A stretch of 64,000 nt of DNA from an uncultured Candidatus Izemoplasmatales bacterium (GTDB lineage: Bacteria; Bacillota_I; Bacilli_A; Izemoplasmatales; Izemoplasmataceae), in contig CAZXSS010000001.1 of NCBI GenBank assembly GCA_964643385.1, positions 5,283-69,282 of the forward strand. The letters are read 5' to 3'. The position numbers and the translations under genes are program-made. This document shows, piece after piece, positions 11,740 through 54,757 of the stretch. Position 1 is the first letter of the stretch, and every line of letters begins with the position of its first letter. The notes beneath the pieces were generated by a model. That model saw only the letters and a program-made list of their open reading frames with translations. It made no database searches and had not been told where the DNA came from.

Positions 11740-11916
11740 TGTATCACTCCGTTACAAAATTATTATACATGATTTTAATAATAGTGCAATGATGTTGCTA
11801 ATAATGTAATGTACAAAAACGTTTTTGCATGTCACATATTTCATTATGTTTGTTATTGTTTTAACAGATAAAAAATGATAATATATATATTGCGTATATT
11901 AAAAGGAGTGAACTTT

Positions 11917-14433
11917 ATGGAAAAAGCAATGATAAGAAAAATTATAATCGTCGTGTCACTACTGGTCTTAACGATAGTATTAGCACTCGGATGCAATTAC
12001 TTAACTCAAGATGATGATGATCCTATGGTTGATAACGCCGATGAGTCGTTTTTATCTTTGGGGAATATCTCGATTACTCGTGGCGATGTTTATGAACGTA
12101 CAAAAGCATTAGAAGGTATTAACCATTTACTTAATTATATCGATGAACAATTATTAGAAGATCACATTAATAATGTCGATGACAGTGACGTAGATGAAGA
12201 GTTAAACCGGATTAAGTATGGAACTACTGATCCAATTAAGATAGCTGAAATCCAAGCGGACGAAGCGCAAATGGAAGAGATAGAGGAACAATTCTATTAT
12301 ACTATAGCTTATGCCGGATTTGATCCTGATAAACCAGAAGAAATCGATCGATATATCCGTTTAAATCTAGCTAAGGAACTCGCAACTCAAGAACGTTTAC
12401 TCGTTGATTTCCAAGAAGATGAAACAGAGCTTGAGACCAATCTTTTAGATTATTATGAAGAAAATTATTATGGTGATGTCACTGCTATTGAACTGATTTT
12501 TCAAAATGAAGATGAGTTCAATGCTGTCATGAATCATTTTGATTTGGTGCCAAATTATGAAGGTGGCATTGGATTATATGAAGGGGACGACCCTATTGAA
12601 GATCTATCAAGAGAAGATTTAACAGACGCAAACACGCGCGTTTTAGATACCGATGAAGTATTTGAAATGTATGTATTAATCTATAACTATTTATATCAAT
12701 ATCGTGATCAATTACCAGAGGATGTAGAACAAACAAGTTTAGATACATTTTCTACTGAGTACTTCGAATTCGTTTATGACGATATGACAGAAAGTGCTCG
12801 GACACTTAATGTTGCTAACATTTTATTTGATGAATTATCTCTCGATGACGAAGATGAAGATGCACTCAATTACACAGTTGATAAACGTAGATATAATGAA
12901 GAAGATAGTATTACAAAAGATTATTATGTGATGTATTATAAAATTCATGAGCAATCAATTGATACCTATGACAATTTAAGCAATGAAGAAAAATCTGCGG
13001 TTCGCGAAGATTATTTAGATACTTTAACAACCGATGAGTTGGTAAATTCATATATGATTGAGTTACGTAATGAAAACAACCTTGTGTTCCACGACTCATT
13101 GTTACATAAAAGTTATGAACAAATGGTTGCTAACGTTGTCGGACCAGACTATGCGGTATATGAAAATCAAGACAATCAATTATTGGTTAGTCTAGATGAT
13201 TTCACGGTAAATACAGAAGAGTTCTTTGAATATGCATTAAGACGAACTGGTGCGTTAACATTGATTCAAATATATAAAGAACAGTATCTACTAAAAAGCA
13301 ATTATTTTACAAGCGCCTTTGGCGATAATCGTGATTTAATTAACAGTCGTAATGATAATTTAGAAGAACACCGTGAGTTTATTGAAAATTTGAAAGTCCA
13401 ATTTGCAAATCATCAATACTCACAAGTCTATTCATGGGATGAGTTTTTATACTTATTCTATGGTCATAAAAACGATGTTGATTTTATGCGACAATTGGTT
13501 GTTTCTGAACTGCAAAATTATTTAATCCCAGATTACTTAGATTATGACGATGCGCACGATTATGTTACGGAACAATATGATAATTATATTAATATGCGCG
13601 TAGAACACATTTTAATCTTTGTTGATTTTGATGGCGATTTAGAACCGGATGATTATGATACGTTCTTAGAAGGCTTAGATGACACTGAAAAAACTGCCTA
13701 TAATCTGAAAAAAGCAGAATTAGAAACGGCATTACTTGATGCGGCTGAAACAACAGGCTCACTAACTGAAGTCGTTGCTGAATATAATGAAGCTTTACGT
13801 GATGAGACTGATGAAGATAATCCTTGGGCGGAATTTAAAAACTACGGATTTAAAGTGCGCCATGAGAATTTATCTAGTGATGGTCAAGCCATTACGTATA
13901 ACCAAACCAAAACCTTTGTAGAAAACTTTACGACAAACATATACCGTATTTATGAAACATATCTAACCAATGAATATATTGATGAAGATAGTTTACTAGA
14001 TGATCGTATTTTCACTACTGAGTTTGGAATGCATCTTGTAAAAGCACGTAAAGCTGCAACGAATTTTGAAGCACCTAGCGCGGAATTCACAGACACTGAA
14101 AATGCATATGATAGCCGTGTTGAAAACACAAATGCTATTCCATCTAAAGATCAGATTGAAATTTGGGTAGAAGCGACTTTTGATATCTTAACCTCAGGAG
14201 AAACTAACATCGAACTTCCTGATGAAGTTGATACTGCAGTAAGTGTGTATTTTGAATCTTACTTCCAAGGTCTCCTTCCTAATCCACAAGAAAACTTTGA
14301 TCCGTTTGGTAATCTTGTTATGATTAATAAACTCTTAGATGAAGATGCAACTTACTCAGATGAAAATGAGCGAATTGAAGTCATGATTAGAGCGTTAAAA
14401 GATGTTTATCAAATGATTATATTTGGTGACTAA
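11917..14433 (+). CDS. Large hyper-acidic surface lipoprotein with PrsA/parvulin-like C-terminal signatures
   Basis: ATG 11917 after RBS AAAGGAG. Signal peptide ends in lipobox-like LALGC (Cys26). Very D/E-rich. VEHILIFVD and FGMHLVKA resemble the two parvulin His motifs but lie about 140 aa apart. Confidence 0.5.
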   Translation: MEKAMIRKIIIVVSLLVLTIVLALGCNYLTQDDDDPMVDNADESFLSLGNISITRGDVYERTKALEGINHLLNYIDEQLLEDHINNVDDSDVDEELNRIKYGTTDPIKIAEIQADEAQMEEIEEQFYYTIAYAGFDPDKPEEIDRYIRLNLAKELATQERLLVDFQEDETELETNLLDYYEENYYGDVTAIELIFQNEDEFNAVMNHFDLVPNYEGGIGLYEGDDPIEDLSREDLTDANTRVLDTDEVFEMYVLIYNYLYQYRDQLPEDVEQTSLDTFSTEYFEFVYDDMTESARTLNVANILFDELSLDDEDEDALNYTVDKRRYNEEDSITKDYYVMYYKIHEQSIDTYDNLSNEEKSAVREDYLDTLTTDELVNSYMIELRNENNLVFHDSLLHKSYEQMVANVVGPDYAVYENQDNQLLVSLDDFTVNTEEFFEYALRRTGALTLIQIYKEQYLLKSNYFTSAFGDNRDLINSRNDNLEEHREFIENLKVQFANHQYSQVYSWDEFLYLFYGHKNDVDFMRQLVVSELQNYLIPDYLDYDDAHDYVTEQYDNYINMRVEHILIFVDFDGDLEPDDYDTFLEGLDDTEKTAYNLKKAELETALLDAAETTGSLTEVVAEYNEALRDETDEDNPWAEFKNYGFKVRHENLSSDGQAITYNQTKTFVENFTTNIYRIYETYLTNEYIDEDSLLDDRIFTTEFGMHLVKARKAATNFEAPSAEFTDTENAYDSRVENTNAIPSKDQIEIWVEATFDILTSGETNIELPDEVDTAVSVYFESYFQGLLPNPQENFDPFGNLVMINKLLDEDATYSDENERIEVMIRALKDVYQMIIFGD

Positions 14434-14488: not shown

Positions 14489-15481
14489 TTATTTTTTTAA
14501 AACATCTTGTACAAGATTATCATAGCGCTTGTTAAAAGATTCATCGATGGTTTGTTTAAATGTATCATCGAGGTAATATTGTAGGGCGGTTTGAACAATG
14601 GTTTCGTATGGGGTTTCTGAACTGTAGTGTGTCGCAAGTGACTTGATTTTTGTGTTATCGAAATAAGCATTTAAGGTGTTGTCTCCTTGCATCGGACCCT
14701 TTTTATCTGGAAAATAGGTTAAGATTTTGTCAAGGGGAACATGAATGATGTTGGGTGTTTTGTTTAATGCTTTATAGACAATTTTGGCGAGTTCATTCCA
14801 TGTATACATATATTCAGATGTAATATGGACAGCCTCGTTATAAGCTTTTGAATTACCATATAAATCAACAAATCCTTTTGCGAAGTCTGCGTTATATGTG
14901 AGTGTCCAGATATTATTCCCATCATTGGGAATAACAATGACTTGGTCATGTAGTATGCGGTTAATCACAGTGAAAGGATGTGACCAGCTTGTGAGCTGGA
15001 AAGGGACTGAATGTTTATCATACGTATGGCTTGGTCTTACGATGGTAATCGCAAATGGTGGGTTTTCTAAGGCACTTAAATAGGCTTCGCACGCAATTTT
15101 ATTTTGGCTGTATCCCCATACTTTATTGGCAAGTGGTAAGGTTTCTTTAATGGGTTTTTCCCGTTTACTAATGTCATAACATGAAGCACTACTAATAAAG
15201 ATGTATTGTTTTGTTTTGTCTTTGAACAGTCTAATATCACGTTTAATATCATCAACGGTGAATGCAATAAAGTCGACGATGACATCGAAAGTGTGTCCCT
15301 TTAATTGTGCTAAGACTGCATCATCGTTATTAATGTCAGCCTTAAGGTGGGTTGCCTTATGTGGGATGATGTCTTTTTGGTTTCCACGGTTTAAAAGATA
15401 AAGGTCATGTCCTTGTTCAATCGTTCGCTCAGTGACTGCAGTTGAAATAATACCAGTTCCGCCGATTAATAGAATTTTCAT
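14489..15481 (-). CDS. NAD-dependent epimerase/dehydratase family (SDR) protein
   Basis: N-terminal Rossmann motif MKILLIGGTGIIS; 330 aa; RBS AAGGAG. Confidence 0.7.
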   Translation of the reverse strand: MKILLIGGTGIISTAVTERTIEQGHDLYLLNRGNQKDIIPHKATHLKADINNDDAVLAQLKGHTFDVIVDFIAFTVDDIKRDIRLFKDKTKQYIFISSASCYDISKREKPIKETLPLANKVWGYSQNKIACEAYLSALENPPFAITIVRPSHTYDKHSVPFQLTSWSHPFTVINRILHDQVIVIPNDGNNIWTLTYNADFAKGFVDLYGNSKAYNEAVHITSEYMYTWNELAKIVYKALNKTPNIIHVPLDKILTYFPDKKGPMQGDNTLNAYFDNTKIKSLATHYSSETPYETIVQTALQYYLDDTFKQTIDESFNKRYDNLVQDVLKK

Positions 15482-15500
15482 TGTTCATCTCCTTAAAATT

Positions 15501-15535
15501 AAAAGGTTATATCACGAATGATATAACCTTTTTTG
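15501..15535 (-). terminator. Hairpin terminator after L25/Ctc
   Basis: aaaaggttatatca / tgatataacctttt, 14-bp stem with cgaa loop; U-rich on both sides. Confidence 0.65.
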
Positions 15536-15556
15536 TGTTGTTTGTGTAAGGTGAGG

Positions 15557-16171
15557 TTATTCTTCGTCTTCAGTTTCTGCTTTTTGCTTAATCGCTTCTA
15601 CTTCAACTTCTTCTTCCTCTACGCCTTCTTCTGGTTCGTCTTCATAGGTTGGTTCTGTTACATTAACAACCATCTTTTCAGGGTCTTCTAAAATACGTAA
15701 GTCTTCTGAATGTTCGATGTCTTTAACACGTAATACATCGCCATCTTCCATGCCTTTTACGTCTAATGTAAAGTTTGAAACCCCTTTACCTGGTGAAAAT
15801 TCTGTTTCAATTGATTGGTTGATGAGTTGGACAACAAGTCCGCGTTTTTCAACTTCTTCTTTATTATCTAAGTATACAGGGATATCTGCGGTAATGGTAT
15901 CTGATGCGGTTACTTTGATTAAATCGAAGTGACGTACGTTATTGATGTTTAAAGGATCTGTTTGGATTTCTTTAATATAAACTTGGTGATTTTTACCATC
16001 TAAACGTACTTTGAAAGTCATACTTGTTCCAAATTCGTGATATGCATTCATAAATTCGTTATAATCAACTTGTACTGGTGTAGAGTCAATACGACGACCG
16101 TAAATGACGCCGGGAATTTGTAGTTGACTTCTAATGTCTTTAAGTTTTTCTGTCCGTTTTTTGAGTTTCAT
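15557..16171 (-). CDS. rplY: 50S ribosomal protein L25 / general stress protein Ctc
   Basis: IPGVIYG motif and two-domain Ctc length with an acidic tail. ATG 16171 (MKLKKR) follows RBS AGGAGG; the track start at 16198 would overlap the RBS. Confidence 0.85.
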   Translation of the reverse strand: MKLKKRTEKLKDIRSQLQIPGVIYGRRIDSTPVQVDYNEFMNAYHEFGTSMTFKVRLDGKNHQVYIKEIQTDPLNINNVRHFDLIKVTASDTITADIPVYLDNKEEVEKRGLVVQLINQSIETEFSPGKGVSNFTLDVKGMEDGDVLRVKDIEHSEDLRILEDPEKMVVNVTEPTYEDEPEEGVEEEEVEVEAIKQKAETEDEE

Positions 16172-21153: not shown

Positions 21154-21180
21154 AAAAACGTTCAGAAGAACGTTTTATAA
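21152..21180. terminator. Bidirectional terminator (yigZ / 74-aa ORF)
   Basis: aaaacgttc-agaa-gaacgtttt hairpin. U7 on the minus strand, weaker UUUUAUAAA on the plus strand. Confidence 0.7.
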
Positions 21181-21399
21181 ACCCGCAATTAGTGTGGTCA
21201 ATTCTATTAAGCGCATGAGACCTCTTGTGACCAAATAGGCAAGCCCAATACTTAAGAAAATATAGATGATTTGAATTTGCCAAATGGCGCCTTTTTTAAA
21301 GATGCTGCTAATATCTGCAGCCATCATGGCTTTAAACGTCAAGGGAAAGATAATAAAAAATAAAATTAGTTCGGTAATGGCGCTTTGTAAAGGATCCAT
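21175..21399 (-). CDS. Small two-TM membrane protein, function unknown
   Basis: 74 aa with two hydrophobic helices. Very strong RBS AAGGAGGG, 5 nt before ATG 21399, embedded in the 3' end of the upstream gene (34-nt overlap). Confidence 0.55.
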   Translation of the reverse strand: MDPLQSAITELILFFIIFPLTFKAMMAADISSIFKKGAIWQIQIIYIFLSIGLAYLVTRGLMRLIELTTLIAGL

Positions 21400-21866
21400 G
21401 GGTCCCTCCTTTTAATATAGGCATCATCTTCTGTATCTGAACTGACTATTTGAATCGAAATACGGTTTGGTAAACAGGTGATGGGTTGGACTGGCGAGTT
21501 GGTTGGACCATGCAAACGACAGGTGTTATTTGGGCTGGTTTCGTAGATGACATCGACCATATGATTGTTATATTTGATGACGACAGGTCCGTTTTCTCCT
21601 AAGACGCAAGTGATGTTGTTTTCATTAAAACATTGGATATAATAAGGATTGTCTTCTGTTTCATCTGGTCTATAGATATAGGTTTCATCAATAATGGTAT
21701 ATGACCCATCTGTTAAACTAATATGTAAAATTTCTTGATTTTCATAAGTGACAACGGCCGTGGCATTTTCATCTGTTAATGTTGATTGTAATATTTGGAC
21801 AACGGCGTATCCAATGATTCCAACAACAAGCACAATAAATATTAACCATTTATCATTTTTTTTCAT
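21366..21866 (-). CDS. NusG domain II-containing membrane-anchored protein
   Basis: ATG 21866 (MKKNDKW), one N-terminal TM, then a beta-rich domain ending in TCRLHGP...PITCLPNRISIQI, like the C..C..CLP(N/H)K signature of the NusG_II family. Confidence 0.65.
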   Translation of the reverse strand: MKKNDKWLIFIVLVVGIIGYAVVQILQSTLTDENATAVVTYENQEILHISLTDGSYTIIDETYIYRPDETEDNPYYIQCFNENNITCVLGENGPVVIKYNNHMVDVIYETSPNNTCRLHGPTNSPVQPITCLPNRISIQIVSSDTEDDAYIKRRDPWILYKAPLPN

Positions 21867-21990
21867 GTATATCAACTCCGTATTTGCTAGATATATTATA
21901 CCATACATTTGTTCAATTATACCATTAATCTAAGGTTGTTTGTATACAAATCTATAAACGAAAAAAAAGCGGTTTTATTTGTATTGGTAG

Positions 21991-22019
21991 TTGACAAACT
22001 GTATTACAGCATTTATAAT
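21991..22019 (+). promoter_or_regulatory. Consensus sigma-70 promoter for the FMN-binding lipoprotein gene
   Basis: TTGACA (21991-21996)-17 nt-TATAAT (22014-22019), about 30 nt upstream of RBS TAGGAGG. Confidence 0.7.
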
Positions 22020-22057
22020 ACTATTGGAATGAAAACACACACTTAGGAGGAAATAAA

Positions 22058-22543
22058 ATGAAAAAATTATTAGCTTTATTAGTATCATTAGCATTTGTCT
22101 TTGCCCTTACAGCTTGTGGCGAAGAAGTTGAAGAAGGAGATTTCACCCCTGGCGTTCATACGGGTTATTCAATTGGGACCGACAATGGTACTGGAAAATC
22201 GGTAGCTACAACTGCTACACTGTTTGTTAACGAAAATGGTGTTATTGATTATGCATTTATTGATGTAGTTTACCCAAGCGGTGATGAAACAGATGGTTAT
22301 ACTTATACTACTAAACATGCCTTAGAAGATGACTATGGTATGAAAGGTGCAAGTCCAATTGGTCTTGAATGGTATGAACAATCACTTGCATTAGGTGAAG
22401 CTATTGTTGAAGAACAAGGTTGGCCTGGTGATATCGAAGATGGATACTTCGCTGAAGATGAAGATGTATTTGCAAGCGTAACAATCCGCGTTACTTCATA
22501 CAAAGCTGCATTTGACGATGCAATGGAACAAGCGACTGAGTAA
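22058..22543 (+). CDS. FMN-binding-domain lipoprotein (PplA/RnfG-like, extracytosolic)
   Basis: Signal peptide with lipobox LTAC (Cys20). TKHALEDDYGMK...EWYEQ...DVFASVTIRVTS resembles FMN_bind domains (D-x-x-[S/T]-G-A-T region). Strongly acidic. Confidence 0.65.
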   Translation: MKKLLALLVSLAFVFALTACGEEVEEGDFTPGVHTGYSIGTDNGTGKSVATTATLFVNENGVIDYAFIDVVYPSGDETDGYTYTTKHALEDDYGMKGASPIGLEWYEQSLALGEAIVEEQGWPGDIEDGYFAEDEDVFASVTIRVTSYKAAFDDAMEQATE

Positions 22544-22580
22544 TTTTATCACTAACTAAAGATTTCTAATGAACACAATT

Positions 22581-22616
22581 AAAAAGACACATTATTAACT
22601 TAATGTGTCTTTTTTA
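22581..22616. terminator. Bidirectional terminator (FMN lipoprotein / RnfD-like)
   Basis: aaaagacacatta / taatgtgtctttt, 13-bp stem followed by T-run on the plus strand; A-run upstream serves the minus strand. Confidence 0.85.
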
Positions 22617-22634
22617 TGCTTAAGAAAGGTGTTA

Positions 22635-23621
22635 CTATATACTCAACAACATAATAATACCAAGCCAAACCACACCACTTGCTATAGTTAAAGCGTTTCT
22701 AACGCGCGGAAAGGTCCGGGTTTGAAATTGCTCCATGACCCAGGTAATGAATTGGGCAAAGACAAGCGCGTAAATGGCTGCTTCAATAATGTCAAATTGT
22801 AATCGAAACCATATAGTTAAAATAACGGCTATTAATGGATAGATAATCATCATTTCATCGGTTTCTGGGGTTGATGTTGGTTCTGAGACAAAGAAGACCA
22901 GCATTAATGCGGTATAGCCTAACATGAGATAGGTGAATGTATTCCACAAGGTGTATTCTGTGAATATCGCAAAGACGATTACGCCGATAATCATATGAAT
23001 CACGTATAGTACGCTCATTTTTACATGGATGATTTTTGTTACTGATAAATAAATCCACAACATGAATAATATAAAGAATGCACTGGTTCCTAGCGTTAAT
23101 CCTTCATATAGCCCAAAGAAAAATTGAATGCGGCTAAATGGAAGATCATCAGCGTTAAATATCGCGACCATGGTTTCTGATATAGATAACATATCTCTAA
23201 AAATAAGTTGGACAATAAGTACAGCAAGTAAGACGGGATGGATAATGTGTTTCCTAAATAATATGAGAAATATAAAAGAAAATAACTTAATGATGATTAT
23301 TGTAATAATAATCACATAAAATGGTGCTTGAACGGGTAATAAAAGGCTTGCGAGCAATGCGTGTGTAATGCTTGTCATGTAGTTTCTATAGTGTGTTGTA
23401 TCTTGGTTTTTTAGATATCGGTAAACAAATACTAAAGCGCTTGAGAAGGCGACCGCAATTACTACTTGTAATAAGCCATAGAAGGCATATTCTAATCCAA
23501 TGAATGCTTGTAATATTAAGGCGATAACGGTCATAAATACGACGGCAATGTGATAACTTATGAGACGTTTCAAAGTATGTTCAACGGTACTTACGAGTGG
23601 TGTTTTTTGGATTTTAAACAT
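22635..23621 (-). CDS. RnfD/NqrB-like polytopic membrane protein (divergent)
   Basis: 328 aa, about 9-10 TM. ITHALLASLLLPVQAPFYV, GLTLGTSAFFILFMLWIYL and FFVSEPTSTPET align by eye with RnfD blocks (ITALLLAL.LPP, G.SLGETSAL, FFMATDPVTSP). Confidence 0.6.
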   Translation of the reverse strand: MFKIQKTPLVSTVEHTLKRLISYHIAVVFMTVIALILQAFIGLEYAFYGLLQVVIAVAFSSALVFVYRYLKNQDTTHYRNYMTSITHALLASLLLPVQAPFYVIIITIIIIKLFSFIFLILFRKHIIHPVLLAVLIVQLIFRDMLSISETMVAIFNADDLPFSRIQFFFGLYEGLTLGTSAFFILFMLWIYLSVTKIIHVKMSVLYVIHMIIGVIVFAIFTEYTLWNTFTYLMLGYTALMLVFFVSEPTSTPETDEMMIIYPLIAVILTIWFRLQFDIIEAAIYALVFAQFITWVMEQFQTRTFPRVRNALTIASGVVWLGIIMLLSI

Positions 23622-24753
23622 CGTTATCCCCCTTAAGTAATGCTTTGGCTTTTTTTACAAAATTCATTACGGGGATTTTCGATGGGCAATAATAGGTACA
23701 TAAGCCGCATTCAATACAAAGATTGGTTTTCATACTGCCCAAATAAATATCGTGTTCAACCGCATGCATAATCTTTGATGGCAATATTCCAGCGGGACAT
23801 TTATTATTACAGCGACCACATGAAATACAATCATAAACTTCGCGTTCTCTATGTTCTTGGATATAAAGTCCAACGATGGTTTTTGTAATTGAGAATTGGT
23901 CATGGTCGATGGCTTTCATTTCTAAACGTGAATTTTTAAGAATAGTGAGCGGTTTATTGGTTGTGTACCCATTAAAAATACGTTTTAAATCGGAAAATAG
24001 CGTACCGATTCTGACTTGGAAGACAGTGGGATTTTTTATCGCATCACCATGGACAATAACCCGGTTTAATACCGATGGGCGTTTGTATGTAATCATTTCG
24101 TTGAGTCTTAATATCGATTCAAACGATAGATAGTTATATGTTTGTGTTTTTCTTAATGTTCCGTTGAAGATATCATTGATGGCTTTGTGTCTAAAATCGA
24201 CACCTTTTTCTGGCTTGATTGATCTGACTTCAATGGGAAATGTTTGATTGTTTAAAAAGCGCGATGAGACATCGTCTTTAACGAGTAATACGACCGATTT
24301 AAATTGATATATATCATGTAATGTTTGTATGGTTCTCATGATGATATCATAGGTATTTTCGACAAATTTTTGGTCGAGTGTCGCAAAGGGCTCATCAAAA
24401 AATACAAGATCAACAACAAGGTATTTTTGGTGCATTGAGCCTAATTGCTCAATTGCCAAAGATGGAGAAAAATATGTTTCAATGCGTTTTTTTGTGGTCA
24501 TATTTTGGATGGCTTTGTCCACGGTGTTTTTGGTATCGTTTTCGATAATTACGTAGTTTTTAATGTCGTTATACTCATCTTTTTGAACAATAAATTGTTT
24601 GATAGTGCCACTCACTGTGCTATATACAAGGCCCGCTTCATCAAGCGGTGTGCCAATATTAACAGGGGTATTTAGTGTTAATGAAGGTTTGATTGAATCA
24701 ACAGGTAAGGCAATCAATTTTGGTTGAATATAGCTTTTTTCAGTAGATATCAT
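23614..24753 (-). CDS. RnfC-like iron-sulfur protein (short, nucleotide-binding motifs degenerate)
   Basis: C-terminal CISCGRCNNKCPAGILP and CIECGLCTYYCPSKIPV match the RnfC 2x[4Fe-4S] region. N-terminal barrel motif VYSTVSGTI. 8-nt overlap with the RnfD-like gene. Confidence 0.65.
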   Translation of the reverse strand: MISTEKSYIQPKLIALPVDSIKPSLTLNTPVNIGTPLDEAGLVYSTVSGTIKQFIVQKDEYNDIKNYVIIENDTKNTVDKAIQNMTTKKRIETYFSPSLAIEQLGSMHQKYLVVDLVFFDEPFATLDQKFVENTYDIIMRTIQTLHDIYQFKSVVLLVKDDVSSRFLNNQTFPIEVRSIKPEKGVDFRHKAINDIFNGTLRKTQTYNYLSFESILRLNEMITYKRPSVLNRVIVHGDAIKNPTVFQVRIGTLFSDLKRIFNGYTTNKPLTILKNSRLEMKAIDHDQFSITKTIVGLYIQEHREREVYDCISCGRCNNKCPAGILPSKIMHAVEHDIYLGSMKTNLCIECGLCTYYCPSKIPVMNFVKKAKALLKGDNDV

Positions 24754-24869
24754 TATCCCACCCCTTTTATTATTTTTCTTTATTATAACACGCGTTTATA
24801 TTTTTTTGATAATAGACATCGAAATTAATGAAATTATGATATAATATGTTAGACGAAAGGGGTTTTGCA

Positions 24870-25925
24870 ATGAAAATATTTAACTTTATAACGCTCTTAT
24901 TTATAGGGTTTCTATTGATTAGCTGCGATACTGGTAAAGAAGAACATCAAGAAATCTATTATGGTGTTTTTGATACAAGAATTGCCGTTACTACGTGGCT
25001 CGATAATCAAGATGAAAATGCCCTTTTTGATGAGATAGATGATATTTTAACACATGGCCATCAAGTCTCGACACGATATACAGACTATGAAGATATTCAT
25101 AATATTCATTACATTAATGCACATCCTGACGAAGTCATTGAGATTGACCCGTTACTAACTGAAATGATTGCGCTCAGTATTGATATACACGAGAATGTCT
25201 CGCCGTTATTTAATATAGCCCTTGGTGATGTGGTAGATATTTGGACCAATTATCGCGAGCAATGTCTATCAGATGAGGTTTGTGAGGTTCCATCTCAAGA
25301 TGAGCTCGAAGAAGCAGCAATGATGGCTGATCCTTCGCTGATTGAACTTGATGAAGATAACAATACAATTAAGATTCCCGAAGGTATGACCCTTGATCTA
25401 GGTGCGATTGCTAAAGGATATATTGCTGAAAAAGTTGGCGATTATCTTCGTTCTCAAGATGTAGAAATTTTTATGATAAACTCTGGTAGTTCAAACATTG
25501 AAGTTGAGGGAGCCAATCCGCATCCTGAAAGAGATTATTGGTCAATTGGTTTAAAAGATCCTGATAATCCACTTTCTAGATATGGACGTGTTCGCGTCCC
25601 TTCTGGTTATAGTGCGGTGACTAGTGGAGACTATGAACGGTTTTATACGGTTGATGGGCAGCAATATCACCATTTAATTAGTCCAATAACCTTATACCCT
25701 ACCTATCACACACGTACAGTAACGGTTATTTCTAAAGATCCTGGACTAGCAGATGTGTATTCTACCATTGCGTTTTTAATGCCTATTGATGAATCTATTG
25801 ATTTTATCAACAGCCTTGAAGATACTGAAGCGATTTGGCTAGATACAGATCGTGAAGCGCGCTTTAGTGAGAATTTTGAAGAAAATTATCTTATGGAAAT
25901 TTTGATTGAACAATATACAGACTAA
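24870..25925 (+). CDS. apbE: ApbE-family FAD:protein FMN transferase lipoprotein (FmnB-like)
   Basis: ATG 24870 with lipobox LLISC (Cys19). DLGAIAKGY and TSGDYERFY...YHHLISP ApbE motifs. Confidence 0.88.
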   Translation: MKIFNFITLLFIGFLLISCDTGKEEHQEIYYGVFDTRIAVTTWLDNQDENALFDEIDDILTHGHQVSTRYTDYEDIHNIHYINAHPDEVIEIDPLLTEMIALSIDIHENVSPLFNIALGDVVDIWTNYREQCLSDEVCEVPSQDELEEAAMMADPSLIELDEDNNTIKIPEGMTLDLGAIAKGYIAEKVGDYLRSQDVEIFMINSGSSNIEVEGANPHPERDYWSIGLKDPDNPLSRYGRVRVPSGYSAVTSGDYERFYTVDGQQYHHLISPITLYPTYHTRTVTVISKDPGLADVYSTIAFLMPIDESIDFINSLEDTEAIWLDTDREARFSENFEENYLMEILIEQYTD

Positions 25926-25967
25926 AAAAAATCACTTATCAGATTGTCCTGATAGGTGATTTTTTTA
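25925..25967. terminator. Bidirectional terminator (apbE / Gx transporter)
   Basis: aaaatcacttatcag / ctgataggtgatttt stem flanked by A8 and T7. Confidence 0.85.
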
Positions 25968-26510
25968 TTATGTATGATTTTCAGTTAATGGTTTTAATAT
26001 GTGTAAAAGTTGTATTGTTAGTTTTCCTACAATGAATCCTGATGGCAAACTGAGTAGCAACATTAATGGAAAGTAAGCAGCGATGTAATAATCAAAAAAG
26101 AGTATCGCAACAATCATTTGACCAAACACATGTCCAACTGCGCCAAGGATACTTACGCCAATAATTGAAAAGCTATTAAATGATTTTGCTAAAACCATGA
26201 TTGAGTACGCCAATAACCCACCAACGAGGCTTGTATAAAAGGGGATACTAGATAGTCCTGAATACAGTAACCCGACAAGTAATACTCTTAGTAATAAAAC
26301 AGTAAGGCTATCTTTTCTTCCGTAAGTATATAAAATTAATAATACAATGATATTTGCGAGTCCAATGCGCAATCCACCAACCCCTAATAAGGGCGCTAGA
26401 AACGGTCCGGCAAGGGCGGTAATGCCTTGCATAACAACCCGTTCAACAATGTTCAATACAACACTGAGGGCAAGCAACACGGAAAGCAATGTTAAGCGTT
26501 TTGTCTTCAT
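25968..26510 (-). CDS. Gx transporter family protein (Hpre_diP_synt_I-type membrane protein)
   Basis: 180 aa, 5 TM. LRIGLANIIVL and GAVGHVFGQMIVA resemble the KLGLANI / HN.GQL family motifs. Confidence 0.7.
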   Translation of the reverse strand: MKTKRLTLLSVLLALSVVLNIVERVVMQGITALAGPFLAPLLGVGGLRIGLANIIVLLILYTYGRKDSLTVLLLRVLLVGLLYSGLSSIPFYTSLVGGLLAYSIMVLAKSFNSFSIIGVSILGAVGHVFGQMIVAILFFDYYIAAYFPLMLLLSLPSGFIVGKLTIQLLHILKPLTENHT

Positions 26511-26570: not shown

Positions 26571-28187
26571 TTATGTTTTTTTCTGGTTTTTTAAAAACGT
26601 ATAAAATTCGTTAAATTGTAGCGGTTTGGCATAATGATATCCTTGTGCATAATCGCAGTCGATTGATTTTAAATAGTCAGCTTCTTCTTTTGTTTCAACG
26701 CCTTCGGCGGTTGTTTTTACATTCAAGGACTTACCTAAATTAATTGCTGCTTTGGTGATGCTACAAAGTTGTGTGTCTTTTGTACAATTGTGAATAAATG
26801 AACGGTCAATTTTTAAAGAATGTACTTGATATCTATTTAGTTCACTTAAGGATGAATATCCAGTACCAAAATCATCTATTGATAAACTGATTTTTTCATG
26901 TTTTAATTGATCGATAAATTTTTTAGAAATACTTTTATTAATGATAAGGGATTGTTCGGTGATTTCAAATTCTACATATTTTCCGGGAATTTGATAGTCT
27001 TCTAACCATGTCTTAACGTTGTTGTAAAATGTTTTATCAAGCAGATTTTTTGCGGATATATTTATTGCTATTTTGAGTGGCATCCGGCTTTGCATCAACA
27101 TCTTAATACGTTCAAACACGCTTTTGATAACCCACTCTGTTAAATCATTGATGAGCGATGTATTTTCAATAAGAGGGATGAAATCATTAGGCATCATTAA
27201 ACCTAAGTCATCACTTTGCCAGCGCAACAAGGCTTCTGCCCCAATAGTCTCTTTTGTTTTTAAATCAATTTGTGGCTGGAATACTAAATATAATTCATTG
27301 TTATAGATTGCTTTATTAAATAAGCCTAAGATATTAATATTTTCGTGATTTGGGCTCATAGTATCGGTGTATTTTGCATAACTTACATAATTGCGTTCTG
27401 CATACCGAGAAGCGTACATAGCTTTAATTAAGGCTGTTTGTAAATCATCATTTGCCATGGTAATACCTAATGCTATATCGAGATAAATAGGAATATCTTT
27501 TATAATAAAGGTTTCCCTTAGGGTATCACTTAAATGCTCTAAGGTATTATCATCGACTTCATTTTCAAGTGTGATGATAAAACTTGATAATTCTTTTTGA
27601 TAGATACTGCTTGTATGTTTTAAGTTAATTATGCGTGATTGCATGAGTTGTAAAACATCATGATAGGCATCAATACCGAGTAAATCGATTAAATCTTGAT
27701 GATTCAAGATTTTTAAATGCATAATATAATGTGGGTGTTGATCAGCATCTTGATCAATTAAATCGGTTAATAAAGGGATATCTGTATAAATATCTTTTTT
27801 TAATATTTTAATACGTTCTAAATACGCTGTTTTTATAGCTTTTGAGAAATAGCCAATGGTTCCCCCAATAAGCATAAAGAAAATAATACGGTAAATCCAG
27901 TTGATAGGAGATTGCATAAGCATTGCATCGGTATCAATAGGCATAAATGGACCAAGTAGTAAGCCACCGATTAAGCCTTGAATTAGCCCACCGTAAACAC
28001 CAAAATAGATACCTGCTAAAAGAATCGGTATATACATTCCATGTGAATACACATATTGAATGCCTCCTGTAAGATATACCAATAGTGTAATTAGTATTGT
28101 AAGGATTATGAGACCAATTGCGAGAAATTTTTGAACTGATTTTTTAGGAGTCATAAATAATGTAATCCACCCATTTAATTTTTTCAT
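26571..28187 (-). CDS. Membrane-bound c-di-GMP phosphodiesterase (degenerate GGDEF + EAL)
   Basis: Four N-terminal TM. Central GGDEF-like fold with KELSSF in place of GGDEF. EAL domain with EALLRW, FIPLIENT, NISAKN, EFEITE, DDFGTGYSS, KIDRSF, AEGVET and QGYHYAKP. Confidence 0.85.
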   Translation of the reverse strand: MKKLNGWITLFMTPKKSVQKFLAIGLIILTILITLLVYLTGGIQYVYSHGMYIPILLAGIYFGVYGGLIQGLIGGLLLGPFMPIDTDAMLMQSPINWIYRIIFFMLIGGTIGYFSKAIKTAYLERIKILKKDIYTDIPLLTDLIDQDADQHPHYIMHLKILNHQDLIDLLGIDAYHDVLQLMQSRIINLKHTSSIYQKELSSFIITLENEVDDNTLEHLSDTLRETFIIKDIPIYLDIALGITMANDDLQTALIKAMYASRYAERNYVSYAKYTDTMSPNHENINILGLFNKAIYNNELYLVFQPQIDLKTKETIGAEALLRWQSDDLGLMMPNDFIPLIENTSLINDLTEWVIKSVFERIKMLMQSRMPLKIAINISAKNLLDKTFYNNVKTWLEDYQIPGKYVEFEITEQSLIINKSISKKFIDQLKHEKISLSIDDFGTGYSSLSELNRYQVHSLKIDRSFIHNCTKDTQLCSITKAAINLGKSLNVKTTAEGVETKEEADYLKSIDCDYAQGYHYAKPLQFNEFYTFLKNQKKT

Positions 28188-47340: not shown

Positions 47341-47356
47341 TCAGCTCTGTTTTTTA
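47328..47356. terminator. Perfect 22-nt palindrome containing both convergent stop codons; bidirectional terminator
   Basis: cagagctgatt|aatcagctctg (47328-47349), then T6. TAA of the HD-GYP gene (47338-47340) and TGA of kamE (47341-47343) sit at the palindrome centre. Confidence 0.75.
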
Positions 47357-48075
47357 TGGAGTGCTTGAACGGCGAAACTGGCAACATCATACGCGTACTT
47401 TTTAGGACCGAAGCCAGCATCATAGCCTAGTTCTTTAGCTAGCGCATGATTGATTCTAGCGCCGCCGATGATGACGATAAAATCATCACGTTTATTTTCT
47501 GCTTCTAAGAGTTCTATGAAGGCTGTGAGGTTTTGAATGTGCACGTCTTTTTGGGTAACGGTTTGACTAATTAAAATCACATCTGCTTGATGGGTTATGG
47601 CTTCTTCTAGCAATGTTTCATTATCGATTTGACTGCCTAAGTTAATTGCCTGAATGCCTTTATAGCGTTCTAAACCGTAATTTCCGTTGAATCCTTTCAT
47701 ATTCATGATGGCATCAATGCCTACGGTGTGTGCATCTGTACCGGTTGATGCGCCAATGAAGGTAAGTGGTCTGTCAAAATGGGTGGCGATATATGTTTCA
47801 ACGGCTTCTTTGCTCATCGTATCTGATTCAATATCTGTGACGGTGATTGTACTTGGATCAATTTGATGGCGGATAGAACCGTAGACAATGTAAAAACTGA
47901 AGTCATCACTCAAGGGTGTGCTATGCACAACACTTGCGTTTTCTAACCCCATCTTATGTGCAAATGCTTTGGCTGTTTCTTCGCCTAGTGTGTCGCATGG
48001 CAAGGGTAAGGTAAAACTAACTTGGACTTTTCCATCGTTTAAGGTATCGCCATAAGGTCTTATGAATTTACTCAT
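47341..48075 (-). CDS. kamE: Lysine 5,6-aminomutase beta subunit (B12-binding)
   Basis: 244 aa. Cobalamin base-off motif GTDAHTVGID. 8-nt overlap with kamD. Confidence 0.88.
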   Translation of the reverse strand: MSKFIRPYGDTLNDGKVQVSFTLPLPCDTLGEETAKAFAHKMGLENASVVHSTPLSDDFSFYIVYGSIRHQIDPSTITVTDIESDTMSKEAVETYIATHFDRPLTFIGASTGTDAHTVGIDAIMNMKGFNGNYGLERYKGIQAINLGSQIDNETLLEEAITHQADVILISQTVTQKDVHIQNLTAFIELLEAENKRDDFIVIIGGARINHALAKELGYDAGFGPKKYAYDVASFAVQALHKKQS

Positions 48076-49633
48076 GATTTGCCTCCTTAAGATGGGTTAT
48101 CATCATGTCCATCACTGGGTTATGGTAGTGTTTGTGTTTTTTTATTACGCCGTCTAACCCTTTTCCTTTGGTTGGGCTGCGTTTAACATCTGCGAAAACA
48201 CCTTTTTCTAGCGAGCTAAATAAGCCGTCTTTTTTGATGGTATCTAGCAGCGCTTTCGCATCATTTAATACGTTAATCGCACGGGTGGCAATAATCCCGT
48301 CGTCTTTATAGGTAATTTCTTGTCCGAAATCTTTGAAGGCTTTATATATAAGTGAGGTATTATCTAAGGCTAGTGCTCTATCACTCATAAACGGGGTATG
48401 AATGGCTTCGGTAATCATCCCTAGTAAATGGATGTTTTGATTGGTCGTGACGGTCGCAATATTAAAGAGGGTATTTAATGTCGTGCCTTTAAAGATATCC
48501 CCGGTCATATGTTTTGTTGGGGGCATATATTTTAGCGGGGCGTTTTTAAAAATATCTCTTGATAATTGGGCGCTGGCTATTTCATATAAAAAGCTGTTTT
48601 CAATCGTAGGATCAATTTCATAGGCATGACCAAGTCCCATGAGTGATTCTTTCATATATGCGGTTTTTGCGAATTGTTCGTTAATGAACTGACTCGCTAA
48701 TACGTTATGAGCATGATGAAAGGCGTCTGCGGTAGTTAGGTAATTATCTTCTCCGGTATTAATGGTGATGTCTGCGTACGCACTGATAACGCGGGAAAAA
48801 TATTGATCAATCATCGTGCGTTTCATATTAATATCACGGAAGATAATCCCATAAAGCGAATCATTGAGCATCATATCTAAGCGTTCTATTGCGCCGAGTG
48901 CGGCGATTTCAGGCATGCAAAGACCGGATGCGTAGTTGACAAGTTTAATATAGCGTTTTTCGGTTTTTGAGACAGTATCAAGCGCTTCGCGCATTAAGCG
49001 GAAGTTTTCTTGGGTAGCGTAAGTTCCGCCGAAGCCTTCAGTAGTAGCACCATAGGGGACATAATCAAGTAATGATTGACCGGTTGTTCTTATAACGGCG
49101 ATTACATCAGCACCGTTTTTCGCTGCGGATACAGCTTGTTTAATGTCTTCGTGGATGTTGCCGGTTGCGACAATAACATATTTTTCTGGTTGATTTTCTC
49201 TTGGAAATGTGTCTAAAAATTGATGACGCGTGCTGGTTTGATGGTTGATTTTTTTCAGTGTTTTTTTAATGTATGGGGTTAATAAGTCTAGATAAGGACT
49301 ATCTGTTTCATCATGATAGATAGATAAATCAATGGTGCCTTCGTTAATGGCATAGGCGATGGCTTGTGGTGATTGATCATGTGCGTGCATCGCATAACTC
49401 ATGTAGTGGGCTATCCCTTTATCTAACCCGTTATTATTCAAAATATGATCAACAACGATATTGGCATAAGGGATATCAAAATCGTTGATGCCATCAATAC
49501 CTAAAAACCTTGCGATGGTACGTTCAACACTTACAGTGGTGTAGTCATCAATCATTGCTTTCATGTTTTTTGCGATGGTTTTTGCATCTTCTCTACAGGC
49601 GTTGATGGTTTGTATGTTTAGTGGTAATCTCAT
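48068..49633 (-). CDS. kamD: Lysine 5,6-aminomutase alpha subunit
   Basis: 521 aa TIM-barrel-size protein directly upstream of the B12-binding subunit within a kamA/kdd/kce/kal cluster. Confidence 0.85.
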   Translation of the reverse strand: MRLPLNIQTINACREDAKTIAKNMKAMIDDYTTVSVERTIARFLGIDGINDFDIPYANIVVDHILNNNGLDKGIAHYMSYAMHAHDQSPQAIAYAINEGTIDLSIYHDETDSPYLDLLTPYIKKTLKKINHQTSTRHQFLDTFPRENQPEKYVIVATGNIHEDIKQAVSAAKNGADVIAVIRTTGQSLLDYVPYGATTEGFGGTYATQENFRLMREALDTVSKTEKRYIKLVNYASGLCMPEIAALGAIERLDMMLNDSLYGIIFRDINMKRTMIDQYFSRVISAYADITINTGEDNYLTTADAFHHAHNVLASQFINEQFAKTAYMKESLMGLGHAYEIDPTIENSFLYEIASAQLSRDIFKNAPLKYMPPTKHMTGDIFKGTTLNTLFNIATVTTNQNIHLLGMITEAIHTPFMSDRALALDNTSLIYKAFKDFGQEITYKDDGIIATRAINVLNDAKALLDTIKKDGLFSSLEKGVFADVKRSPTKGKGLDGVIKKHKHYHNPVMDMMITHLKEANHE

Positions 49634-50625
49634 CGGTTGCCCTCCTCTTCTTGGACGTTAATTACTGGGACGCTAATGGCGTCTTGCATGGCACTGTGAA
49701 AGGCCACTTTGTCATATCCCTGTCCGGTTGGTCTAAAGGGATTAATCGTGACACATAGTAAAGGTATTGTATGCAAGACTTCAATTCTGATGTTTAACTT
49801 TTTGATATAGGTAAAATAGTGGGTTGGTAATAATAGTTTGGTCGCATTATCTATAACTAATGTAACGTTTTTTTCTTTATGGTTAATAAAGTAATCGATG
49901 ATGCGTTTTGTGATGGCGCCTTTTATATAGAGTGTTTTATTACCTGCTTCATTGGCGGGCGTTAATACGTGTCCAATCACTTTTGGGGTGTTGTGCTTGT
50001 TGGTGGTAATAGTTAAAGGGTCACCGCTTTTTAGTGTAGATAAATCCAATCCTGTTTGCGGATATTGAAAACTTTTAACGATGGCTTGTGTTGCTTTAAT
50101 TGTTGTTGCCATGTCTGGATGAAGGCTAGCCCCTGTTGCAAGAATCACGCCATCAAGGGATGGTATGCTTGCTACGGTTTTTCGGTTAAATGCGCCATCA
50201 ACCAAAATAATATCTGACAAAGGTTTTAATGTGGTGATGATGGTGCTTAAATCTTTATTGGTTGATGGGCCAGCAATTACAACATTACCAGGATGTGTTA
50301 TCTTGATGATAACAATATTGCCTAGTGCTGTAGAACACGTTGTTCGTTTAATGAGACTATATTTTATAAGCGTGTCTTTTAGTGTATCTTCTGCCGTAGC
50401 AATAATCATACCTTTTTTGACTGTGATTTGTGGTTTCGGAAGAAAGGTTAATTGGTCGATTTGTTCACCATCTAAACCGATGCTTGTGAGTGCGATGCGC
50501 GTATCATTAGGTAATGTTTTAATGCAGGCATTTAATGTGGTTGTTTTGCCGGTGTTTTTGGCAAGCCCAATAATTGCAAGTGTGGTTGGTTGTGCGGTTG
50601 ATAATACGGTATGTAAAGTTGTCAT
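49630..50625 (-). CDS. P-loop NTPase between kamA and kamD; candidate aminomutase reactivase ATPase (KamC-like)
   Basis: 331 aa. N-terminal GLAKNTGKTT P-loop. Start ATG abuts the kamA stop; 4-nt overlap with kamD. Confidence 0.5.
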   Translation of the reverse strand: MTTLHTVLSTAQPTTLAIIGLAKNTGKTTTLNACIKTLPNDTRIALTSIGLDGEQIDQLTFLPKPQITVKKGMIIATAEDTLKDTLIKYSLIKRTTCSTALGNIVIIKITHPGNVVIAGPSTNKDLSTIITTLKPLSDIILVDGAFNRKTVASIPSLDGVILATGASLHPDMATTIKATQAIVKSFQYPQTGLDLSTLKSGDPLTITTNKHNTPKVIGHVLTPANEAGNKTLYIKGAITKRIIDYFINHKEKNVTLVIDNATKLLLPTHYFTYIKKLNIRIEVLHTIPLLCVTINPFRPTGQGYDKVAFHSAMQDAISVPVINVQEEEGNR

Positions 50626-51864: not shown

Positions 51865-51875
51865 AATGGTCCTCC

Positions 51876-52916: not shown

Positions 52917-53734
52917 TCCTTTATGTTTAGTATTCTGCGGGCTTCTTTAGGGGTTGCGATTAAGCGATTGTGGGTTTTAGCAATGGCGACGACTTTTTCA
53001 ACGAGTTGTTTATTGCCTTTGGCAAGAACACCTTTTTCTAAATAGATATTGTCTTCTAAGCCAACGCGGACATGACCACCTGCTTTAATGGCAAGTTCAG
53101 CAAGCGAAAACTCATATTTCCCAATACCAGCAACACTGTAGGTTGCATCAGGTGGTATGGATGCTTTTAAGAAATGAAAATCTCTTTCTTCACCGGTCAT
53201 GCCTCCGTTTACACCTAAGACAAAACTAAAATGTAAGGGGGCATGAATAAAGCCTTTTTTGTGTAATCTTAAAACGGTATCTATGTGTCCTTTTTCAAAA
53301 CATTCTAGTTCTTTAAAGATATGATTGTTTTCCATGATTTTAGCCATTTTTTTGATGTCATTTTCTGTATTAACAAATATCGCATCGCCACCAAAATTTA
53401 AAGTACCACAATCAAGGGTAGCCATTTCAATAGGCAGTTCGGTCACGGCGAGGCGCTCTTTTAATGACATGCCAACAGCGCCACCGGTTGATGGTTGGAT
53501 AATGACATCTGGGCATACAGCTTTGATGGCATCAATTAATACTTTATAGCGGGTCTTATCTTGAGTTGGTGTGCCATCTTCTTCTCTTGCATGTAAATGG
53601 ATAATGCTTGCGCCGGCTTGATAAGCAGCCTGTGCTTCTTGGACTATCTCATCTTTGGTGTAGGGAATATAAGGGGTATGGTCCTTGGTGACCTCTGCGC
53701 CTGTGATGGCACATGTGATAATCAGTTTATCCAC
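52913..53734 (-). CDS. kce: 3-keto-5-aminohexanoate cleavage enzyme (BKACE/DUF849 family)
   Basis: [11 protein letters not shown]...IPYT..EI...[16 protein letters not shown] family signature; 273 aa. Confidence 0.85.
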
Positions 53735-54110: not shown

Positions 54111-54112
54111 TA

Positions 54113-54535: not shown

Positions 54536-54550
54536 GAATATCCTCCTTAA

Positions 54551-54590
54551 AAAATATAAAATAAAAAAGCTGTCCTTAGGACAGCTCTCC
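54551..54590 (-). terminator. Riboswitch expression-platform terminator
   Basis: Minus strand reads GAGAGCUGUCC-UAA-GGACAGCUUUUUUAUUUUAUAUUUUUU: 8 perfect bp plus A-U and G-U extensions, and a long U tract, 15 nt before the RBS. Confidence 0.85.
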
Positions 54591-54745: not shown

Positions 54746-54757
54746 CATTCCACTCGT

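Follow-up and report, generated by a model that had tools for sequence, protein, structure and literature searches.

Ten flavinylation-associated systems have been defined (Meheust et al. 2021), and the Rnf complex, the Nqr/Rnf-like complexes and extracellular electron transfer (EET) are those closest to the locus described here. In the Rnf complex of Acetobacterium woodii, electrons follow a straight transmembrane wire from the flavin mononucleotide (FMN) of RnfC, FMN(C), through C1 and C2 of the same subunit to riboflavin and FMN(D) in RnfD and then to FMN(G), and Na+ takes a path through RnfA and RnfE in which RnfD has no part (PMC11889175). The Nqr/Rnf-like complexes have an RnfD-like subunit without a flavinylation site and a flavinylated partner, and one-way electron flow from the cytosol to the outside has been proposed for them (Meheust et al. 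2021; Huang et al. 2024); in these complexes, the partner's covalent flavin is predicted to sample the pocket of the RnfD-like subunit. The EET locus of Listeria monocytogenes comprises FmnB, PplA, EetA, EetB, FmnA, Ndh2, DmkA and DmkB, and its EetB is a flavin adenine dinucleotide (FAD)-binding energy-coupling factor (ECF) S subunit required for FAD export and for the flavinylation of PplA (Rivera-Lugo et al. 2023, PMC9973259). In this study, we report the analysis of a 64,000-nucleotide stretch of DNA from an uncultured Candidatus Izemoplasmatales bacterium (assembly GCA_964643385.1, contig CAZXSS010000001.1, positions 5,283 to 69,282; hereafter the window), and describe an island of seven genes, at 21175-26510, that joins a flavin-attachment module to a reduced and remodelled pair of Rnf homologues, here named RnfC' and RnfD'. 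Izemoplasmatales are wall-less Bacilli, formerly placed in the Tenericutes.

The attachment genes and their association with rnf genes are known; new is the reduced RnfC'D' form together with a lipoprotein that probably carries flavin. Our preferred model is that RnfC'D' would pass electrons one way, without ion pumping, from a low-potential cytoplasmic donor to this flavoprotein at the cell surface, and we give the whole model, flavin attachment included, a probability of about one half. The seven genes and the flavinylation motif are as follows.

23614-24753, reverse strand: RnfC', a 379-amino-acid (aa) cytoplasmic protein of the RnfC fold with two CxxCxxCxxxCP [4Fe-4S] motifs; Pfam detects Fer4 families only
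22635-23621, reverse strand: RnfD', a 328-aa membrane protein of the RnfD/NqrB family with 10 transmembrane-like segments (PF03116, E=3e-16)
22058-22543, forward strand: acidic lipoprotein of 161 aa (lipobox LTAC); its one domain, termed "type A", is of a divergent FMN_bind type predicted from remote homology
22463-22483, forward strand: variant flavinylation motif D136-V-F-A-S-V-T142 with the predicted FMN acceptor T142, aligned to DAISGAT of PDB 2kzx_A
24870-25925, forward strand: ApbE/FmnB-type FAD:protein FMN transferase, a lipoprotein (MKIFNFITLLFIGFLLISC) with lipobox LLISC (PF02424, 188 bits)
25968-26510, reverse strand: EetB homologue, a 180-aa ECF-S-type membrane protein with five transmembrane-like segments (PF07456, Hpre_diP_synt_I, 93.9 bits)
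21366-21866, reverse strand: EetA homologue of 166 aa, an N-terminally membrane-anchored NusG_II domain with one transmembrane segment and four Cys (PF07009, 48.4 bits)
21175-21399, reverse strand: DUF1146 (YwzB-like) protein of 74 aa with two transmembrane segments (PF06612, 30.9 bits) and AGGAGG upstream

The open reading frames (ORFs) lie where an earlier reading made from the sequence alone (the sequence-only reading) had placed them, and a Pfam scan agreed with the families that it had named, except for that of the lipoprotein; its view that the island centres on extracytosolic flavinylation is borne out.

RnfC' shows homology to RnfC across the SLBB and 2x[4Fe-4S] region, with E=1e-15 against 7zc6_C, and scores 107.6 bits against TIGR01945 rnfC, below the cutoff of that model. 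Its AlphaFold model (predicted local distance difference test score, pLDDT, 82) matches RnfC chains over the full length (Foldseek E about 1e-22, TM-score 0.62-0.63), with NqrA as the second-best structural match. The sequence-only reading had called the protein RnfC-like; Pfam finds its Fer4 part, but the RnfC_N and SLBB domains escape Pfam and are seen only in the alignment and the predicted structure. In an alignment of 31 sequences, including 20 RnfC' family members and canonical RnfC, the canonical rows carry GxGGAGFP and INAVECEPY, the Izimaplasma rows (406/425 aa) have lost the glycine motif, and the whole GGAGFP loop of about 23 residues is deleted in every one of the 20 RnfC' members. 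No match to PF01512 (Complex1_51K) was found in RnfC'. The protein has exactly eight Cys, those of its two CxxCxxCxxxCP motifs, and all eight are invariant across RnfC' proteins that are as little as 33% identical. Judged from these alignments, RnfC' is an iron-sulfur protein without a site for reduced nicotinamide adenine dinucleotide (NADH) and FMN. NqrA of the Na+-NQR is likewise a protein of the RnfC fold that has lost its cofactor sites and stays bound to an RnfD/NqrB-type subunit (PMC11889175); NqrA has lost every cofactor, whereas RnfC' keeps both [4Fe-4S] motifs.

RnfD' consists of PF03116 only and ends in a transmembrane segment, and the ApbE recognition motif D-x-x-[ST]-G-A-T is absent from it in every alignment. 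Both phmmer and a bridged L-INS-i alignment place an invariant T150 (S-E-T-M) at the position of the A. woodii acceptor T156, with the five preceding motif residues deleted, and this residue may be a cryptic acceptor Thr. MAFFT-auto puts F155 at the acceptor position instead; replacement of the acceptor Thr by Phe155 was rejected as alignment-dependent, since the other two alignments disagree with it. The riboflavin ligands of A. woodii RnfD are N123 and D249 (PMC11889175), and in the alignment their positions are taken by the invariant H128 and E247 of RnfD', both conservative replacements; RnfD' probably still holds a non-covalent flavin. The first 24 residues are its most conserved stretch, and in A. 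woodii it is the termini of RnfD that insert into RnfC (PMC11889175). The RnfD' family is very small, with 17 clusters among 5.8 billion proteins and eight loci among 185,579 species genomes. All carriers belong to the Izemoplasmatales or Acholeplasmatales, and one carrier of RnfC'D', Liberiplasma polymorphum (C05PYG), is cultured and offers an experimental handle.

The retention of an RnfC-fold protein could also be accounted for by a role other than electron transfer, in which RnfC'D' would be, for instance, a channel or scaffold for flavin or another small molecule that aids the trafficking of FAD or riboflavin to ApbE, or an NqrA/NqrB-like quinone-linked module; in the former version, the RnfD/NqrB protein would be the membrane part and RnfC' a redox-sensing Fe-S lid. 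The example of NqrA, the Nqr counterpart of RnfC, which has been retained despite the loss of all its cofactors (PMC11889175), fits such a role, as do its rank among the structural matches, the lack of a covalent-FMN motif in RnfD' and the constant position of the RnfC'D' pair between apbE and eetA. The invariant cluster cysteines and the invariance of the riboflavin-ligand positions in RnfD' are not what such a role would lead one to expect, for RnfD of A. woodii a part in electron transfer alone has been reported (PMC11889175), and the RnfD/NqrB family has no known transporter function. We regard this explanation as improbable, and lean slightly towards RnfC'D' being a transmembrane wire.

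The origin of the pair was traced by comparing 10 distinct RnfC'D' loci with the locus of Ca. Izimaplasma HR1 (CP009415; L017) and that of a second full-operon genome (L021/L022). In HR1, a complete genome, the syntenic interval is bounded by PadR-DegV-eetB and, at its other end, by eetA-DUF1146-UPF0029-CCA-pullulanase, and contains, in order, apbE, lipoproteins that bear flavinylation motifs, a small NADH_4Fe-4S protein, an [FeFe]-hydrogenase, rnfC-D-G-E-A-B and a rhodanese-lipoprotein, the C-terminal half of which is homologous to the window lipoprotein. The arrangement in L021/L022 is the same, and both loci share with the window the syntenic position, the DUF1146 gene and the lipoprotein domain. 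They also hold rnfG, rnfE, rnfA, rnfB and the hydrogenase genes, whereas the window is without these, its RnfC has the loop deleted and its RnfD lacks the ApbE motif. Because the full rnfCDGEAB stands in the same syntenic slot in HR1 and L021/L022, the island is a reduced form of a known cluster type. The arrangement in the window is a lineage-specific reduction: this lineage has lost the hydrogenase genes together with rnfGEAB, and has kept and remodelled rnfC and rnfD. The sequence-only reading had spoken of a two-subunit Rnf remnant, and this proved correct. Identity of RnfC' and RnfD' with their full-operon counterparts at this locus in HR1 is only 27-29%, and the nearest outgroups of RnfC' are the Izimaplasma RnfCs (27-32% identity). 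A look-up of the exact RnfC' sequence gave no record. An 81-kb NCBI metagenome-assembled genome (MAG) contig carries RnfC' and RnfD' that are 100% identical to those of the window, and the nearest named relative, from an uncultured Candidatus Izemoplasmatales bacterium, is 88% identical.

All seven genes of the island are under purifying selection (dN/dS, the ratio of nonsynonymous to synonymous substitution rates, 0.03-0.16 between the window and the 88%-identical relative; flanking genes 0.05-0.11), the ratios being approximate because dS is near saturation. Decay of RnfC'D' into pseudogenes was considered and ruled out by the intact ORFs in all loci and by dN/dS values of 0.03-0.05.

Searches by tblastn with the HR1 proteins found no RnfG, RnfE, RnfA or RnfB in the window, in the flanks of the related loci L001-L019 or within 8-10 kb of any of the 10 distinct RnfC'D' loci, and Pfam annotation of the large ORFs of the window gave none of them either. 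The pair might nevertheless belong to a split Rnf, assembling with RnfG/E/A/B encoded elsewhere into an ordinary ion pump served by ApbE and EetAB, with the lipoprotein as an unrelated ApbE client. Two Rnf complexes have been reported in Izimaplasma genomes (PMC6256511), ApbE/EetAB beside rnf is the common arrangement (PMC9973259), and the present analysis covers a 64-kb window of this genome. If four genes had merely moved, RnfC and RnfD should not have changed as strongly as is seen here: identity to the HR1 copies is only 27-29%, RnfC has lost its NADH/FMN loop and RnfD its flavinylation motif. The missing subunits are also absent near all 10 loci and from the window. A split Rnf thus appears to us an unlikely account, and the reduced pair acting as a wire in its own right is preferred.

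The second element of the preferred model is the acidic lipoprotein (mature isoelectric point 4.05, in keeping with its earlier description as acidic), which has only five close homologues. The sequence-only reading had given it an FMN_bind domain. Pfam FMN_bind (PF04205) does not match it even at E<=10, and an NCBIfam scan was likewise without an FMN_bind match, but the assignment survives as remote homology. A type-A profile built on 12 domains of the related loci gave a full-length match to PDB 2kzx_A (E=3.7e-9; E=8e-4 with a smaller profile), with DVFASVT of the lipoprotein aligned to DAISGAT. Pfam FMN_bind in turn recognises 2kzx_A (31.8 bits, cutoff 22 bits); the lipoprotein is for this reason taken as FMN_bind-type. 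An exhaustive HMMER search showed that the type-A family has 1,180 representative clusters at 50% identity, with one to six domains per protein. Motif residues were counted in 316 domains from the top 149 family representatives. T or S occupies the acceptor position in 311/311 domains, and D or E occupies position -6 in 294. A, S or T is found at position -3 and G or S at position -2; the residues at position -1 are V (155), C (117) and A (26). The family-wide motif is D-x-x-[AST]-[GS]-[VCA]-[TS], and DVFASVT of the window lies within this norm. Relative to the classical D-x-x-[ST]-G-A-[ST] it keeps the D and the acceptor T and is changed at positions -3, -2 and -1.

On these alignments, the lipoprotein belongs to a divergent FMN_bind type whose members share a variant of the classical motif, and it is a probable substrate of ApbE. 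It is also the sole ORF in the window that combines a lipobox with a flavinylation-type motif. In the fumarate reductase of Klebsiella pneumoniae, single G->A and A->V changes in the motif each leave about 50% flavinylation (PMC12052999), and the RnfG motifs of HR1 and L021 are DAVSGVS and DSIAGVT. Flavinylation of the window lipoprotein is plausible because of these partly active mutants, the ...SGVS and ...AGVT motifs of RnfG and a six-copy relative in L019, and we consider it likely. An AlphaFold2 model of the lipoprotein, built from a six-sequence alignment, reached a pLDDT of only 52, and its Foldseek matches (GFP, secretagogin and others) were meaningless and were discarded. FMN_bind recognises only 18 of the 100 top type-A representatives at E<=1e-3. 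Surveys of flavinylation based on PF04205 therefore probably undercount this family of probable ApbE substrates, as most type-A members are missed, and this holds independently of the wire model.

The relative in L019 (11219-14215, reverse strand) is a lipoprotein of 998 aa in which one Big_2 domain accompanies six type-A domains in tandem, all of them ending in D-x-[IV]-A-G-V-T-I-N. It adjoins RnfD' and is a candidate for a multi-flavinylated "flavin wire".

Downstream of rnfD', a convergent gene for a lipoprotein with a flavinylation-type motif is found in 8/10 distinct loci. The slot is occupied by type A in the window, L007, L010 and L019, and by type B, ending in D-x-V-T-G-A-T-W-[SN]-D-F, in L004, L005, L012 and L013; no homology between the two types was detected by hhalign (probability 1.8%). 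Since the same slot has been refilled by non-homologous lipoproteins that bear such a motif, function rather than mere synteny is favoured. Conservation of the neighbourhood had been proposed as a check on the island, and the layout does recur in 10 distinct related genomes. It might still be explained by inheritance of a syntenic segment that holds two or three independent functions, namely flavinylation of clients anywhere in the cell, an orphan Fe-S/membrane pair and DUF1146. This would agree with flanks that are collinear from NfnAB to ribosomal protein L25 in all loci, with the lipoprotein family occurring without Rnf genes in L003 and L020, and with the absence of the lipoprotein from L014 and L018. 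It would not predict the refilling of the slot by unrelated lipoproteins each with a flavinylation-type motif, nor that insertions have occurred elsewhere (pntAB in L019, an EAL gene in the window) and left the core intact, and the ancestral arrangement is a recognised functional cluster (PMC9973259). Mere neighbourhood by inheritance is, in our judgement, a poor candidate, and we favour a functional link of the lipoprotein with RnfC'D'.

In the flavin-attachment part of the island, ApbE, EetA and EetB form a known module for flavin trafficking and attachment, and we hold this assignment with high confidence; ApbE matches solved FAD:protein FMN transferases at 1e-28. By the definitions of PMC9973259, the NusG_II gene is a PF07009 EetA and the Gx-transporter gene a PF07456 EetB, so the sequence-only reading was mistaken in reporting EetA and EetB as missing. 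Its statement that Ndh2 and DmkA/B are absent stands: Pfam annotation of window ORFs of at least 110 aa gave no genes for Ndh2, DmkA/B, quinone, FmnA (ECF-T), ECF-A or hydrogenase. The Rnf+apbE/eetA/eetB operons of the earlier survey and the HR1 locus have the same ApbE, PF07456 EetB and PF07009 EetA around their rnf genes. In that survey, in which EetB homologues were searched as PF07456 and PF07009 (NusG_II) proteins are labelled EetA in Data Set S1, eetB colocalised, among 4,214 genomes that contain it, with eetA in 3,328, with apbE in 2,169 and with Rnf genes in 572, the last association being strongest in the class Clostridia (PMC9973259). A literature search for ApbE, NusG and flavinylation found no paper.

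In the proposed mechanism, EetB, together with ECF-T and ECF-A encoded elsewhere, would move FAD to the outer face of the membrane, with EetA as its usual companion, and the ApbE lipoprotein would attach FAD's FMN moiety to Thr142 of the probably abundant 161-aa lipoprotein. RnfC', with its two [4Fe-4S] clusters, would dock on RnfD', so that the pair would keep the straight RnfC-RnfD segment of the Rnf path, minus the NADH/FMN entry point. Electrons would then run from a reduced cytoplasmic donor, most plausibly ferredoxin from pyruvate:ferredoxin oxidoreductase (PFOR), through the two clusters of RnfC' and the non-covalent flavin of RnfD' to the covalent FMN of the lipoprotein and an external acceptor. 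The flavinylated lipoprotein would serve as outer partner in place of the outward-facing FMN of RnfG, where the segment ends in Rnf, and in relatives another one, with up to six domains, would do so. No ion pumping is expected of RnfC'D', because RnfA and RnfE, which carry the Na+ path in A. woodii, are absent; the wire would be one-way, leading from a low-potential cytoplasmic donor to the cell surface. The genes for PFOR and an NfnAB-type enzyme are both in the window, as had been noted from the sequence. Put in its boldest form, the island would be a minimal "half-Rnf", a new EET conduit without quinone, cytochrome or NADH, in which a ferredoxin-fed RnfC' on a flavin-holding RnfD' supplies covalently flavinylated surface lipoproteins of one to six domains in Izemoplasmatales; this form we propose only tentatively.

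Several observations weigh against the wire. RnfC' has lost its only known substrate site, and the cytoplasmic donor is therefore a guess. The covalent-FMN motif is gone from RnfD', so that the wire may have one flavin fewer than the canonical two. The link between RnfD' and the lipoprotein is proposed from neighbourhood and analogy, and the structure model of the lipoprotein is poor. L014 and L018 carry RnfC'D' with no lipoprotein in the slot. Conversely, the lipoprotein family occurs with ApbE/EetA/EetB but without Rnf genes in L003, a distant Bacilli MAG, and alone in L020, where a two-domain member has no ApbE nearby; because these two occurrences lack Rnf, the family is tied more closely to the flavinylation module than to RnfC'D'. 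Wide synteny is common to all RnfC'D' loci, which makes adjacency alone a weak argument. Finally, no ECF-T or ECF-A gene for EetB was found in the window.

The cluster fits none of the ten system definitions of Meheust et al. 2021. A full Rnf has RnfABCDEG, usually encoded in a single operon, with RnfB as the marker in that study, and the window has homologues of RnfC and RnfD only; RnfC' has the two-cluster C-terminus and the fold of RnfC, but the GGAGFP site and the D-x-x-[ST]-G-A-T of RnfD are wanting. The cluster is also not an EET system, since it has no Ndh2, and not an NQR. With the Nqr/Rnf-like complexes it shares a motif-free RnfD-like subunit and an adjacent extracytosolic partner, here with DVFASVT and predicted to be flavinylated. 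Their definition asks for an N-terminal PF03116 and a C-terminal PF00175 in one protein, and RnfD' has PF03116 alone. Their input is this NqrF-type, NAD-binding PF00175 domain fused to RnfD, whereas the window has a separate RnfC-derived 2x[4Fe-4S] protein with no nucleotide site; and their partner is a membrane-anchored NqrC/RnfG homologue, whereas that of the window is a lipoprotein of a divergent FMN_bind family. With Listeria EET the island has in common an ApbE lipoprotein of the FmnB type, EetA, EetB and a probable flavin-bearing surface lipoprotein. Ndh2 (the marker), DmkA/B and FmnA are not in the window, and passage through the membrane would be by RnfC'D' and not by Ndh2 and demethylmenaquinone. 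The lipoprotein, a single domain with a D-x-x-A-S-V-T motif, is without demonstrated orthology to PplA. By analogy, the cluster would work most like the Nqr/Rnf-like class, while descending from the Rnf+ApbE+EetAB class.

The sequence-only reading had not recognised the combination as a described system. This was overstated, as a complete rnfCDGEAB stands at the orthologous position in HR1 and L021/L022, but no description of the reduced RnfC'D' form was found in the literature searched. The accessible portions of the data sets of Meheust et al. 2021 and Rivera-Lugo et al. 2023 held no match to Izemoplasmatales, Acholeplasmatales or DUF1146. If the model is true, selection can maintain the linear RnfC-RnfD-flavoprotein segment by itself, which amounts to a natural dissection of Rnf. 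In fermenters that produce reduced ferredoxin, RnfC'D' would also let cytoplasmic reducing power out without pumping, and it would be an eleventh type of membrane passage beside the ten systems defined.

The island has five transcription units in three convergent/divergent blocks, set apart by three hairpin terminators. The sequence-only reading had counted three units bounded by terminators; the terminators themselves are confirmed. The signals identified were:

21991-22019, forward strand: consensus sigma-70 promoter TTGACA-17-TATAAT of the lipoprotein gene, with 12/12 consensus matches
21155-21176: hairpin terminator common to the eetA-DUF1146 unit (reverse strand) and the convergent UPF0029/YigZ gene (forward strand)
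22581-22614: hairpin terminator where the lipoprotein gene and rnfC'D' converge
25925-25966: hairpin terminator with an 18-bp stem between the convergent apbE and eetB

The promoter is perfect, as had been claimed. The lipoprotein gene also has an AGGAGG ribosome-binding site at about 22044, and its dS relative to the L001 orthologue is 0.30, compared with 0.8-2.3 for the neighbouring genes. Promoter, ribosome-binding site and low dS together suggest high expression; such a dS is consistent with the strong codon-usage constraint of a highly expressed gene. The NusG_II ORF spans 21366-21908 on the reverse strand, and eetA probably begins with the ATG at 21866, behind a ribosome-binding site GGAG. 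The ApbE ORF opens at 24846; 24870 (MKIFNF...) is the most likely start, and a TGnTATAAT -10 element lies upstream of it at 24837-24845. The stop of rnfC' and the start of rnfD' overlap by 8 nt. No FMN riboswitch or other RNA was found in the island by an Rfam scan, the sole match being a lysine riboswitch 28 kb away.

The DUF1146 gene overlaps the stop of eetA by 34 nt and is translationally coupled to it. With a dN/dS of 0.03, it follows eetA at every Izemoplasmatales locus examined, the full-rnf loci included, and does not occur in the distant L003 operon. That operon (L003, 464-10147) comprises ApbE, EetA, EetB and the lipoprotein, is flanked by proteins of 785 and 578 aa with weak N_methyl (prepilin-type) matches, and is followed by a lipoprotein signal peptidase. 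In L019, the inserted pntAB encodes a transhydrogenase and lies between eetB and apbE. The EAL gene of the window (26571-28187, reverse strand) encodes a membrane-anchored protein of the c-di-GMP phosphodiesterase type and lies between eetB and DegV; the insertion is confined to the window and its closest relative and is absent from the other related loci.

The full operons have features of their own. In L017 (6936-14912) and L021/L022 (6858-15284), rnfCDGEAB has directly upstream of it, in the same direction and with a 12-nt gap, the genes for a 117-aa NADH_4Fe-4S protein and for the large subunit of an [FeFe]-hydrogenase. In HR1 and L021/L022, RnfC is without GGAGFP, RnfB has only 101-103 aa (PF04060 alone, with no polyferredoxin part), and RnfG has 669-781 aa with a C-terminal D-x-[VI]-[SA]-G-V-[ST] motif. 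From this arrangement, the operon may encode a hydrogenase-coupled Rnf. Lipoproteins with rhodanese domains stand beside apbE and rnf at 15082-15921 and 5955-6761 in L017 and at 5863-6684 in L021, all on the reverse strand, and one is fused to a type-A flavin domain with the motif DGLAGVS. These hint at extracellular sulfur-compound chemistry on the acceptor side.

The rest of the window is given to housekeeping and fermentation, with genes for SUF, PFOR, an NfnAB-type enzyme and DegV and a lysine-fermentation operon under the lysine riboswitch. A very acidic 852-aa ORF (11875-14433, forward strand) has an N-terminal membrane/lipoprotein signal (...LALGC) and no Pfam domain, and a counterpart of about 843 aa is in the same position in L004 and L007. 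The lysine riboswitch (RF00168, 82 bits) lies at 54574-54749, upstream of the fermentation operon (whole region 47341-54749, reverse strand), which encodes a MaoC-like dehydratase, BKACE, lysine 2,3-aminomutase and the alpha and beta subunits of D-lysine 5,6-aminomutase.

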